IMG/VR virus record: IMGVR_UViG_3300036823_000120
Location: 30,583 to 94,582 of that record
Source of the DNA: a virus
Direction: 5' to 3' (one strand)
Length of the DNA: 64,000 bases
How positions within the stretch are numbered: position 1 is the first letter of the stretch; each line of letters opens with the position of its first letter. The notes under the pieces were generated by a model, which did not search any database, was not told the origin of the DNA, and saw nothing but the letters and a program-made list of their open reading frames with translations. Made by a program: the position numbers and the translations under genes. Of this stretch, positions 8,965 to 13,542 are shown in pieces.

Positions 8965-9708
8965 TCAACTAATCGGCATTTCACAGACTTCGCCTTCACA
9001 AAACTTCGTATCAATTCCGTCTGAGCCACAAAAGCCTGACCAATCAATTTTTTGTATGGCCGCTAATCTAGCTTTGTACTCTTCTTCAGATATACCTTCC
9101 TCTGGCATTTGTTCATATACACCTTTTGGTGTATGAGGTAATAATGAACAAGCTTTAATTAGTGGAGCAAAAGCTGATAAGACTTTTTCAAGAATATCCT
9201 CCTCGTGATTAGGATCAAACTTATAGACTCTCATTTCCGTAGTTTTAGTCCAATAGTTTTCACGGAACGTGACTTTGATTGAATTATTTTCAAAGTCAGC
9301 TTGTCCAGCAGCAATATTGGTCCAAGGATATTCATCTTTAAAGTATTCAATCAATTCTTTGACAAATTGGCCTTCTTTCCTAATATGCATGATAAGCTTC
9401 CACTTAGGCCGGAAATATAGTGTATTAGAAACACTATTATCTGCCCATTCTCTCTGAACTGTGGCAAGATTAACCGCTTGCTCCCAGAGACTTATCGTAT
9501 CTGCTGGAGGCGTTGGTCCTTGAAGAGTGGGATATTCATAAATTAGAGTTCCATTTGGATCAGTTACATCTGGTTCATATGGGATACATGCTTTATCAAG
9601 GATTGGACACATAGGATGGTTACGTGCAACACGAGTGCGACGCAACGTGTAATCGAATGTTGGATAACCAATACCAGCCGTTCTTCCTGCAAGCTTTGGA
9701 GTAGTACC
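8965..9708 (-). CDS. nrdJ: class II (B12) ribonucleotide reductase, exon 4
   Basis: GTTPKLAG..., WADNSVSNT, YEQMPEEGI and C-terminal KFCEGEVCE redox pair. Confidence 0.9.
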   Translation of the reverse strand, partial: GTTPKLAGRTAGIGYPTFDYTLRRTRVARNHPMCPILDKACIPYEPDVTDPNGTLIYEYPTLQGPTPPADTISLWEQAVNLATVQREWADNSVSNTLYFRPKWKLIMHIRKEGQFVKELIEYFKDEYPWTNIAAGQADFENNSIKVTFRENYWTKTTEMRVYKFDPNHEEDILEKVLSAFAPLIKACSLLPHTPKGVYEQMPEEGISEEEYKARLAAIQKIDWSGFCGSDGIDTKFCEGEVCEMPIS

Positions 9709-10599
9709 CATTTAATCCCATAATTTTCATTATAGGCTGGACTATATCTTTATCTTTTCTAATTCACTATGACGATATCTAAAACATGAAGCATATTTTT
9801 CTACAAAACGATTATATTTTTTCTTTCCACAAATAGTTAGACGCCAAAAACTTTGGTGTTTTTCTGTAACATCAAACTTATGAATATGTGGATTAATCCA
9901 ATCTTGTTGTAAAATATATTGAGCTTTACAAATAATACTAAAATTAGTATTACATAGTTGAATTATAGGTGAAGTAGTCCAACTATGGTTAGTAAAGCTA
10001 CCTTCTGCTTCATATATTCCAGCTAACCAATCTCGTGAATAAGAGTAAGATACCTCGCGTGTAGTCTCTGAGGATCGCCATTGATTGTGCTTTTCAACAA
10101 TTTCTAATTCTTTGTCGTTATGCAGCGAGTATCTAGTTCTTTGCATTCGACTATTAACAAATTGTTGAAAACATTCTAATCTGACTTTATCACATTCAAT
10201 GAGTGATTTAAAGTAATCTACAAATAAGCTTATAGCTACATTTGAACAAATACTTAAATCATAACAGTCAATTTTACCTGTTCTTATACTTTTAGTTTTA
10301 GAATAGTTAATAAGCTTTTGTTGTAAAATCTTTTCGCAAAGCTCAATAGCAATTTTATTAGTATTAGATATACTAATTTTTGGTTCAAAGAAAAAGCCTA
10401 CATTATTGCCTCTTCTTTGTCTTTCTCTAAAACTAAAAGAACCCTCACCTTCAAAAAAGCCAGAAAACCAATGGATGTCCTGCGGGTTGTCCATTTTTAT
10501 CTCTTGTTTTGTTACTTATAAGTAACAAGAGGTCTTGGAGTTTCACGCATATAGCGAGGAGTACACTAATACATTTCTGTATTAGGCGGCAGTACATTT
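9709..10599 (-). mobile_element. group I intron 3 of nrdJ
   Basis: P1 CGGU/GCCG, P10 GTACT/GGTAC, Q ACCCGCAGG, R TCAGAGACTACA, S AAGATATAGTCC, terminal G at 9709. Confidence 0.9.
9742..10494 (-). CDS. double-motif LAGLIDADG homing endonuclease
   Basis: WFSGFFEGEGSF and WLAGIYEAEGSF. Confidence 0.9.
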   Translation of the reverse strand: MDNPQDIHWFSGFFEGEGSFSFRERQRRGNNVGFFFEPKISISNTNKIAIELCEKILQQKLINYSKTKSIRTGKIDCYDLSICSNVAISLFVDYFKSLIECDKVRLECFQQFVNSRMQRTRYSLHNDKELEIVEKHNQWRSSETTREVSYSYSRDWLAGIYEAEGSFTNHSWTTSPIIQLCNTNFSIICKAQYILQQDWINPHIHKFDVTEKHQSFWRLTICGKKKYNRFVEKYASCFRYRHSELEKIKI

Positions 10600-10609
10600 A
10601 CCGGGTTTG
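10600..10609 (-). CDS. nrdJ: nrdJ exon 3 (10-nt micro-exon CAAACCCGGT)
   Basis: Splicing restores ACC ATC AAA CCC GGT GGT ACT = TIKPGGT, the conserved TxKPxGT motif. Confidence 0.85.
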
Positions 10610-11459: not shown

Positions 11460-11799
11460 ATGGTTGTCTTACGAATTGCTTCAGGAACACCAGCTTCAGC
11501 ATTTGCTTCTTGATTGATTTTTGTAACTTTCTCATATCCCTTTCTCATATAAGAAGTTACTTTATTCAATCCAACATCATATACCCAACCAGTCCAATCA
11601 ATAATACCAATGCCAATTCTTCGGTTTCTAGCAACAACTCGATTTGTTTCCTCTCTATGAGTAGGAAGTAAGCTTACACTGCTACAATACATTGTAGCAT
11701 ACTCAACTGCTTCATACCATTGTTGGACACCATTACAACGAGTTGGCAAAGTTTCTGAAACGTTGCACAATTCCTTATCTTCGAGTGGAATTTCTCCGC
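11460..11799 (-). CDS. nrdJ: nrdJ exon 2
   Basis: (C)GEIPLEDKELCNVSE...NRRIGIG...IRKTT(I). Confidence 0.9.
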
Positions 11800-12458
11800 C
11801 GCTATTGTTACTCATGCTTAATACATGGGAGTGGTCATTTCTGCCACTCTCTGCATGTTACCATGCAGGCCGGACTATATCATCATCCTTGTAGGATGTC
11901 TCGCGTGTAGTCTCTGAGGTTCCAGATTATCGCTTAAGTTGACGTAACAAATGGTATGTTTGCAAGTCTAAAACTGCATCCATTTGACCATATAGTGTAG
12001 CAAGACGCTTTGTAACATACTCAAATAGAATTGTAGCTTCTTCATTTTTAGCTACGATATATTTGAGTAATATTTTCAAAGCTTTTTCAACACGCATCAC
12101 ACCATTTATTTCAACGCGCTTCGCAGCGCGTTGATTAGAGGCACGAGTTGCATCATAAATATGATATGCTAGTCCTAGCTTTTGCAGGATAAAACATATA
12201 TTTTCTATGATGATTTTATTTGTGTTGACAATTTTAATCCCTACATTGTAGGAACCTTTGCTACCTGGACTCATTGAAAAGCAACCTTCACCATCAAGAA
12301 TACCACTTAACCAACCAAGCTCAAAATCTGTTACCTGCGGATTGTCCATTGCAATATACTTGGGATTTTTGCATTAGAAGCACCCAAGCCTTTAGGTACT
12401 TTCCAGCATATAGCGAGATTGTTCACTGATATATTACTATATCAGGCCGCTAGGATTA
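11800..12458 (-). mobile_element. group I intron 1 of nrdJ
   Basis: P1 CCGU/GCGG, P ATGCTGGAAA, Q AATCCGCAGG, R TCAGAGACTACA, S GATATAGTCC. It splits the T|GC Cys codon of NPCGE. Confidence 0.9.
11927..12349 (-). CDS. single-motif LAGLIDADG homing endonuclease
   Basis: WLSGILDGEGCF, 140 aa. Confidence 0.9.
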   Translation of the reverse strand: MDNPQVTDFELGWLSGILDGEGCFSMSPGSKGSYNVGIKIVNTNKIIIENICFILQKLGLAYHIYDATRASNQRAAKRVEINGVMRVEKALKILLKYIVAKNEEATILFEYVTKRLATLYGQMDAVLDLQTYHLLRQLKR

Positions 12459-13542
12459 ACGGATTCAGTCCACTTGCCTTATCTTTTCTAACAGGAATTG
12501 GCTTACCAATTCGCCCAAAAGGAAAGTTTTTCAGGTTCAAGATTCCTGGCTCTCCTCTAACTGTTATACGCTTTGCTACTTCTCCTAACTGTTCAAAGTC
12601 TTCTGGATTATATAGAACCGCTGTATTGTTAGACATCCAGCCCCATTCTTGGCGTTCAGGATTCATGTCATAGTCTTTAAGATTCATAAAAACAGGATCA
12701 TGAATATCGCCCTTCATAAGTTCTGCACTACGTCTAACGTTACCAGCAACGACGCAAACTCCGAGTATATTACCTATGTCTGCTTTTAATCTGACTTCGT
12801 CAATTGATTCAGATTCAAAAAGCATTTCCATATTTTCGTGTAATCTTTTCAAAGGGACTGGGCCAGAAGCTTTTCCGCCAAACCCTTTAATTAGTAGACC
12901 TTCTTCACGAAGTTTGTCGTATTTGAAAATAGGCTTTCGTCTATTTGGCTGAGTATAAGCTTCGACAAGAAGCTTTACACTATCAGCCCAACCTTCTCGT
13001 GAATCTGGAATTTCAAAGATATAAGTTCCAACAGGCTTATATCTAATTAATCCAGTTCGTTTTGGTTCAAATCCAACACCAACACCAAGCATCAAAGCAT
13101 CCATCATCCAATTCAAATCATTGGCGAGAGTATCATTATCGCCCAAAACGCAATATCCGCAATTGTTAAGAGCCATAGAGCCACGTTCATATATGAACGA
13201 TGTACCCATAGCCCATAGACCCCGACCACCAGGAAACCAATGCATATTGAACAAACTGATTGCCATTCTATAGGCATAAGCTTGCCAGTATTCTTCGTCC
13301 CATCTGATATAGTTTCGAGCATAAAAGTCTTTTCTAATCGAGAAAGTTCCATTAATTACCCTTGTTACAACATCAGCCCAATTTTCCTGTCCACCATTTG
13401 TTTTTATGCGACTATATGTCCTAAAGAAAACTAATTCACCATAGCCGTCATAACCAAAATCTGGCTTCATAAGCTGAAGTCTTGAAGCAAAATCAAGACT
13501 TAGTGAGAAGTGTTCATTTACATACTTAGTGGGGACCACCAT
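12459..13542 (-). CDS. nrdJ: nrdJ exon 1
   Basis: VFFRTYSR, PGGRGLWAMG, LNNC, LMLGVGVGF, DSREGW, GFGGKASGP, VVAGNVRRSA, GLNP. The spliced CDS is 2178 nt, 725 aa. Confidence 0.93.

Follow-up and report, generated by a model that had tools for sequence, protein, structure and literature searches.

We analysed a stretch of 64,000 nt (the window) that corresponds to bases 30583-94582 of the IMG/VR record IMGVR_UViG_3300036823_000120, a viral genome of 94,582 bp rated complete by CheckV. The virus is a tailed phage, and its genes include those for a large terminase of the gpA type, a coat protein resembling that of P22, a tape-measure protein and a family A DNA polymerase. On the minus strand of window positions 8965-13542 lies nrdJ, a ribonucleotide reductase (RNR) gene divided into four exons by three predicted group I introns, each of which carries a LAGLIDADG homing endonuclease gene (HEG). 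Introns 2 and 3 stand back to back, separated by a micro-exon of 10 nt. One soil metagenome (DNA), which may be the source sample, was the sequencing run in which this DNA was found, and a megablast search of the whole nrdJ stretch against GenBank phages returned no match. The host gene is very probably a class II, monomeric, RTPR-type NrdJ dependent on adenosylcobalamin (AdoCbl), belonging to a tailed soil phage of 94.6 kb and interrupted by three mobile group I introns, all members of one family. The parts of the locus are listed below in the order of transcription (IGS, internal guide sequence; P, paired element; J, joining segment).

12459..13542, minus strand: nrdJ exon 1, 1084 nt; its last base, T, is the first base of the Cys362 codon; placed by Pfam and by junction alignment.
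11800..12458, minus strand: group I intron 1, 659 nt; IGS GCGG at 12447-12450; P7 5' strand from 11916; J8/7 GATATAGTC at 11873-11881; P9, P9.1 and P9.2; terminal G at 11800.
11927..12349, minus strand: HEG1, 140 aa, single-motif LAGLIDADG in the P6 loop of intron 1; LAGLIDADG_3, E=3.4e-7.
11460..11799, minus strand: nrdJ exon 2, 340 nt; GC GGA GAA ... ACC AT; placed by gap-free homologue alignment.
10610..11459, minus strand: group I intron 2, 850 nt; P10 guide UUG at 11450-11452; IGS GUGG at 11446-11449; P7 5' strand from 11074; J8/7 at 10642-10650; terminal G at 10610.
10644..11354, minus strand: HEG2, 236 aa, double-motif LAGLIDADG in intron 2; LAGLIDADG_3, E=2.9e-11.
10600..10609, minus strand: micro-exon CAAACCCGGT, 10 nt; completes the Ile475 codon with its third base and encodes K, P and G.
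9709..10599, minus strand: group I intron 3, 891 nt; P10 guide GUACU at 10591-10595; IGS GCCG at 10587-10590; P7 5' strand from 10070; J8/7 at 9740-9748; terminal G at 9709.
9742..10494, minus strand: HEG3, 250 aa, double-motif LAGLIDADG in intron 3; LAGLIDADG_1, E=5.7e-7, and LAGLIDADG_3, E=8.3e-10.
8965..9708, minus strand: nrdJ exon 4, 744 nt including the stop codon; starts GGT ACT; placed by homologue alignment.

When the four exons were joined, the resulting 2178 nt encoded 725 aa with one terminal stop and restored both NPCGE and TIKPGGT, as a preliminary description made from the sequence had proposed. NPCGE was restored only when intron 1 was removed, and CAAACCCGGT was needed both for the reading frame and for the I-K-P-G of TIKPGGT. 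Continuing the exon frame into any of the introns led to a stop after 6-7 codons, a TGA or TAA at the border of the IGS and P2. Exon 1, used as the query for longer proteins, returned thousands of RTPR-type reductases of 700-765 aa, with 77-81% identity between exon 1 and its best homologues. The same description had held that its model would fall if the spliced protein did not align with NrdJ; the product aligned at 63-78% identity over about 720 positions with 12 intact homologues (717-764 aa), against which the junction regions GLNPCGEIPLEDKELCNV and RKTTIKPGGTTPKLAGRT showed zero gaps. The homologues P0001-P0004 were 75-78% identical to the spliced product over 724 aligned positions, with gap-free junctions. 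The micro-exon is exactly 10 nt, since the U before the 5' splice site, the terminal G and the frame of the homologues together allow one solution per junction. The G+C content was 0.31 in introns 2 and 3 (window 9709-11459) and 0.38-0.40 in the nrdJ exons and intron 1.

The identity of the enzyme was supported by Pfam matches of exon 1 to RNR_Alpha (PF17975, E=6.1e-27) and RNR-II_ins_dom (PF21995, E=2.9e-10), and the C-terminal CEGEVC pair is encoded in exon 4. P0001, the homologue with 81% identity to exon 1, matched the reductase of Lactobacillus leichmannii (L. leichmannii RTPR, PDB 1L1L) with E=6e-63, and NPCGE aligned to residues 406-410, the Cys falling on C408, the thiyl-radical cysteine of that enzyme. 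Intron 1 interrupts this TGC codon as T|GC (NPC|GE) and therefore splits the codon of the thiyl-radical Cys, a split of the catalytic Cys codon having been described before; introns 2 and 3 interrupt TIKPGGT at points 10 nt apart.

A common layout was found in the three introns: P1, a P2 hairpin, P3 (CUCGC/GCGAG), P4 (UGCUG/CAGCA and variants), P5 ((A/C)UCC/GGA(U/C)), P6, P7 with CAGAGACU...AGUCC, J8/7 with GAUAUAG, P8 and P9. Each 5' exon has T as its last base and forms a P1 of 4 bp with a U·G pair (CCGU:GCGG, CCAU:GUGG and CGGU:GCCG for introns 1, 2 and 3), and all three introns end in G (...TAGCG, ...TGTCG and ...AAATG), which bears out the splice-site pairing and terminal bases reported earlier. 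The P10 pairings were likewise located in introns 2 (CAA:UUG) and 3 (GGUAC:GUACU). Helices were compared by anchored extraction from five nrdJ introns (the three here and two from the contig L079, described below) and three family members from other IMG/VR contigs, a method used in place of a whole-intron MAFFT alignment, which had misaligned the open reading frame (ORF) regions. Compensatory changes were observed in P3 (CUCGC/GCGAG versus CUUGGC/GCCAAG in L079 intron 1), P6 (GGU/ACC versus GGA/UCC) and P7 (G-C versus A-U), and P8 occurred as at least six different helices (CAUCCU/AGGAUG, UUCCGCA/UGCGGAA, UAUCUU/AAGAUA, CACC/GGUG, CAACCG/CGGUUG and CCCAC/GUGGG). RNAalifold, run on an unforced alignment of five members, recovered P7 and P8 with 4 pairs altered on both sides. 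Exact blocks of about 20 nt were common to introns 1-3, and the P3, P7 and J8/7 strands were identical between introns 2 and 3. In intron 2, P8 (UUCCGCA/UGCGGAA) closes the second HEG domain and is followed by a tail of 32 nt with P9 only; in intron 3, P8 is UAUCUU/AAGAUA and the tail of 31 nt again holds P9 only. P9.1 and P9.2 hairpins were present in intron 1 and in both L079 introns and missing from introns 2 and 3. The Rfam model RF00028 (Intron_gpI) matched the 3' half of intron 1 (48.6 bits, E=1.9e-10), the 5' half of intron 2 (22.7 bits, E=0.011) and the 3' part (40.6 bits, E=4.9e-8) and 5' part (21.4 bits) of intron 3, and across the whole genome its matches were confined to the stretch 8965-13542. 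Judged by their predicted structures, introns 1-3 are group I introns of one family, with a conserved P3-P9 core in which P3, P6, P7 and P8 covary and which includes the P3/P7 pseudoknot, J8/7 and the bulged nucleotide of P7, and they would be expected to self-splice.

The products of the three HEGs (HE1, HE2 and HE3) scored 30.9, 43.9 and 39.2 bits against LAGLIDADG_3 (cut-off 22.5), and HE3 scored 30.8 bits against LAGLIDADG_1. The acidic motif residues were kept in all of them: GILDGEG in HE1, GILDGEG and GILEAEG in HE2, and GFFEGEG and GIYEAEG in HE3. The three proteins are presumably active endonucleases. In their genes, the start codon and the five opening codons, for MDN(P/Q)Q, come from the P5 3' strand, J5/4 and the P4 3' strand of the ribozyme. 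The ORF of HEG1 ends before P7; in HEG2 and HEG3, the P6 loop accommodates domain 1 and the P8 loop domain 2, the stop codon TAG falls within J8/7, and the linker between the domains (SSETTCE in HEG2, SSETTRE in HEG3) is encoded by P7-J7/3-P3'. The ORF of L079 intron 2 was laid through the ribozyme core in the same way as HEG2 and HEG3. At site 1, the spliced exons form inverted arms of 4 bp centred on the insertion point (TCCG-TG-CGGA), a symmetry that would suit a homodimeric single-motif HE1, although as evidence it is weak.

Several observations weigh against the reading of nrdJ as a functional gene with three splicing introns. All RF00028 scores were under the gathering score of 50 bits, which is a database cut-off and not a structural feature, and the scores fell below it because the match to the model is broken up by ORF inserts of 420-750 nt in P6 and P8. 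The P1 helices have only 4 bp, and intron 1 is without a contiguous P10. Introns 2 and 3, lacking P9.1 and P9.2, could function less well as ribozymes or depend on a protein helper, and translation and folding may conflict where the endonuclease ORFs traverse the ribozyme core. A search of sequencing runs found zero RNA runs with this DNA and thus gave no RNA evidence. The shortened 3' tails of introns 2 and 3, the sub-gathering scores and the empty RNA search would also fit nrdJ being a decaying pseudogene, in which at least one intron, for example intron 2 or 3 without P9.1/P9.2, no longer splices and the phage relies on ribonucleotide reduction by its host. However, the four exons are intact, colinear with the homologues and in possession of all conserved motifs, the core helices are all intact with compensatory changes, and the three endonuclease ORFs are open with their acidic residues in place. 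We consider decay very unlikely, and a gene that still yields NrdJ by splicing accounts better for this preservation.

The micro-exon is shared by the two ribozymes that flank it. The guide of intron 2 reads 5'-UUG|GUGG, of which GUGG pairs with CCAU at the end of exon 2 and UUG with CAA, bases 1-3 of the micro-exon. The guide of intron 3 reads 5'-GUACU|GCCG, of which GCCG pairs with the four bases that end the micro-exon, CGGU, and GUACU with GGUAC, the first bases of exon 4. This division, CAA for P10 of intron 2 and CGGT for P1 of intron 3, agrees with the preliminary description, whose checkable claims on the anatomy (three introns of group I, an exon of only 10 nt and a Cys codon interrupted by an intron) all proved correct. 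Since intron 2 uses CAA and intron 3 uses CGGT, the two ribozymes occupy non-overlapping parts of the micro-exon. After either intron had spliced, the other would see an ordinary exon, and the same 725-aa product would be reached in either order; a fixed splicing order is probably not required. Protein homology suggests that the micro-exon would be retained in the mRNA, and in the sequence analysis two complete cores with two distinct guides flank it.

Introns 2 and 3 might instead usually leave the transcript together, through skipping of the micro-exon or through a hybrid ribozyme that combines the 5' half of intron 2 with the 3' half of intron 3. Most transcripts would then be non-productive and RNR output would be braked. 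A hybrid core is conceivable, given the identical P3, P7 and J8/7 strands, and PMC10136302 documents exon skipping in Staphylococcus phage Twort orf142 (23-nt exon) and in Coxiella burnetii 23S rRNA (34-nt exon). However, the skipped mRNA would lose 10 nt, shift frame and stop after 522 aa, and exon 4 is conserved, which implies that it is translated. The P10 guide UUG of intron 2 is unmatched to exon 4. The end of exon 2 forms only 1 contiguous pair with the IGS of intron 3, which together with the different guides argues against simple exon skipping, and differentiated splice-site guides favour exon inclusion (PMC10136302). Removal of the pair as one unit therefore appears very improbable as the main route. 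An assembly artefact that arose from the repeated intron cores is an exceedingly remote explanation of the tandem, in spite of the exact blocks of about 20 nt that the introns share and of a sole DNA run that may be the source sample, since window 8500-14000 was reproduced with 0 differences and 0 alternative joints by another assembly (a Logan contig of 14,150 nt whose depth is a uniform 12 and which may itself derive from the source sample) and since the tandem arrangement exactly restores frame and motif.

We further compared the locus with related nrdJ genes. Residues 475-478 were uninterrupted in 67 of the 67 IMG/VR loci with a related nrdJ; a search of IMG/VR loci with exon 1 found zero close relatives, and a search of genome contigs with P0131 found zero related loci. 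In a collection of 5.8 billion proteins, C-terminal fragments that start exactly at site 3 (P0122 and P0144, MGT...) or three bases before it (P0131, MGGT; P0143, LKGGT) were found, and several fragments start at site 1 with an intron-1-like tail, for example P0129 (SNNSGGE) and P0137. P0175 reads through ...RKTTIKPG uninterrupted and then continues as TVKTAA-stop, which parallels KCTAA-stop in intron 3 here; read from its protein sequence alone, P0175 has the site-3 intron without the site-2 intron. A pattern for intron-3-type junctions, TTAGGCGGCN{3,12}ACCNGGYTT, gave 26 IMG/VR hits, of which 0 encode NrdJ or a related endonuclease, and these were discarded as chance matches. The intron core pattern identified family members at 7 IMG/VR loci, 0 of them in nrdJ. 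Two further introns of this family lie about 1 kb from each other on the minus strand of the IMG/VR contig L008, with their core motifs at positions 3084 and 4160 of the reverse complement.

A further comparison was provided by L079, a JGI contig of 5.5 kb whose nrdJ is 56% identical to this one and contains two introns (L079:2529-3191 and L079:3534-4448), the exons joining to 724 aa. Its HE1-type intron interrupts NPCG|E at a point 5 nt downstream of the intron 1 site here, and its IGS GCCGC matches GCGGU. Its HE2-type intron (K2, the intron 2 orthologue) stands alone at KP|GGT, 7 nt downstream of intron 2, with IGS GGGC matching GCCU; its endonuclease is 55% identical to HE2, and P3-P4 and the ORF start are near-identical. 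Three positions within 10 nt of TIKPGGT (0, +7 and +10) are thus occupied by homologous introns, as are two in NPCGE that lie 5 nt from each other, and at every shifted site the predicted guide is retuned to the new exon bases. The +7 site is without the required U in this phage, because the Pro codon is CCC. P9.1 and P9.2 have been lost in intron 2 and kept in its L079 orthologue. Inteins were also found at site 1: in the related IMG/VR nrdJ genes of L016:8704-9629, L017:8704-9629 and L041:8677-9665, in-frame inteins of about 310-330 aa without stops start at the Cys that intron 1 splits (NPC|QPGW...). Elsewhere in the window, an 877-aa ORF of the replication region (19719-22349, minus strand) contains an HNH-endonuclease intein (Pfam Intein_splicing and HNH_3), so the genome harbours selfish elements at the protein level as well as the RNA level. 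Two tRNA genes at window 287-359 and 3635-3709 (minus strand) scored above the Rfam gathering score.

HE2 and HE3 are 28% identical, which makes introns 2 and 3 old relatives; a recent duplication of intron 2 into intron 3 was rejected on this divergence. Since in addition P0175 has an intron at site 3 only and the HE2-type intron of L079 stands alone at +7, the comparison indicates that introns 2 and 3 are separable, independent arrivals that met here, and not the outcome of a duplication or an obligate pair.

The recognition site of LAGLIDADG enzymes extends over about 18-22 bp around the point of insertion. Because this footprint exceeds the 10-bp spacing, the putative homing sites of introns 2 and 3 should overlap, which is a sound geometric expectation and had been proposed in the preliminary description. 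In that description the two endonucleases might compete or co-home, and splicing order or exon skipping might limit RNR output. Side by side, each intron would destroy most of the DNA target of the other. If an empty allele were cut, the two introns should enter it together, as both would be within any realistic co-conversion tract, and the two would then be inherited as one unit. The end of a neighbouring intron might have mimicked the exon and preserved the outer half-site of the other enzyme; direct comparison showed no such mimicry. The highest nucleotide identity to the L079 nrdJ was observed at residues 358-368 around site 1 (window 12440-12482 / 11776-11799), 0.82-0.84 versus a mean of 0.59. 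The fraction of identical codons between the two genes was 0.67 at site 1 versus 0.44 gene-wide (n=15), and 0.33 at sites 2 and 3. As a signal of co-conversion this was raised at site 1 but too weak to use: the peak may be due to motif constraint or to co-conversion, between which so small a sample does not discriminate. A tentative and rather doubtful idea is that the intron family "walks" along one conserved motif by retuning its 4-nt guide. The spacing of 10 nt may then be non-accidental, leaving one LAGLIDADG half-site (about 10 bp) per endonuclease and separate footholds for P10 and P1, and if this were true, 10 nt would be about the closest spacing that permits independent homing and splicing of two endonuclease-bearing introns.

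Tandem introns around a tiny exon are of a known kind, and the present case is a tight but not unprecedented crowding of the most conserved motifs of an enzyme. According to PMC10136302, which cites Landthaler and Shub (1999), Twort orf142 has three group I introns with its short exon between introns 2 and 3, splicing and exon skipping were shown, and a hybrid ribozyme was proposed. The two loci are alike in their three introns and short exon, and exon skipping may occur here too, whereas here the exon is shorter (10 nt) and lies in nrdJ, a full LAGLIDADG gene is present in each flanking intron and the guides are clearly different; splicing was demonstrated for Twort and is here predicted from the sequence. 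The Coxiella 23S rRNA, in the same paper, is likewise a bacterial tandem of two group I introns around a short internal exon, but the rRNA imposes no frame constraint, the exon is longer and the introns are of different subgroups. In fungal mitochondria, cox1 of Agaricus bisporus has 19 introns and a 3-nt exon, with short exons of fungal cox1 verified by cDNA (PMC2987802), and cob of Ophiostoma has tandem LAGLIDADG-bearing group IB introns 18 nt apart (PMC12308204). These arrays similarly consist of LAGLIDADG-bearing group I introns that leave few exon bases, and their cases are cDNA-confirmed. However, they sit in organelles with protein splicing factors and maturases, whereas the phage gene is expressed within one infection cycle.

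RNR genes are a classic target of phage introns. Intron- or intein-bearing examples include bnrdE/bnrdF of SPbeta, nrdE of Twort, nrdE/nrdF in the B. cereus group, and also nrdB/nrdD of T4 (PMC3653736, PMC2248736, PMC3984707). In these genes, as here, selfish elements sit at the most conserved catalytic motifs, and one site is used by both an intron and an intein. The known cases are of class I or III with endonucleases mostly of the GIY-YIG, HNH or related types, whereas the gene described here is of class II with LAGLIDADG enzymes, which are not the usual endonucleases of phage introns (PMC3984707). A survey lists only 2 split phage nrdJ genes and describes that of Thermus phage phiYS40 as two reading frames 12 nt apart with no intron (PMC3653736).

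The locus is of particular value because it places two full endonuclease genes 10 bp apart and because single-intron and shifted-site alleles occur naturally. It offers a compact natural system for how two ribozymes share a very short exon and for exon inclusion versus skipping, questions on which engineered Tetrahymena tandems have taken only early steps (PMC10136302). With two intact, divergent LAGLIDADG endonucleases whose targets are predicted to overlap, competition, immunity and co-conversion could be tested with synthetic substrates. Together, these results would extend LAGLIDADG-bearing group I introns to the class II RNR of phages, in which the same Cys codon holds an intron in one phage and inteins in its relatives.

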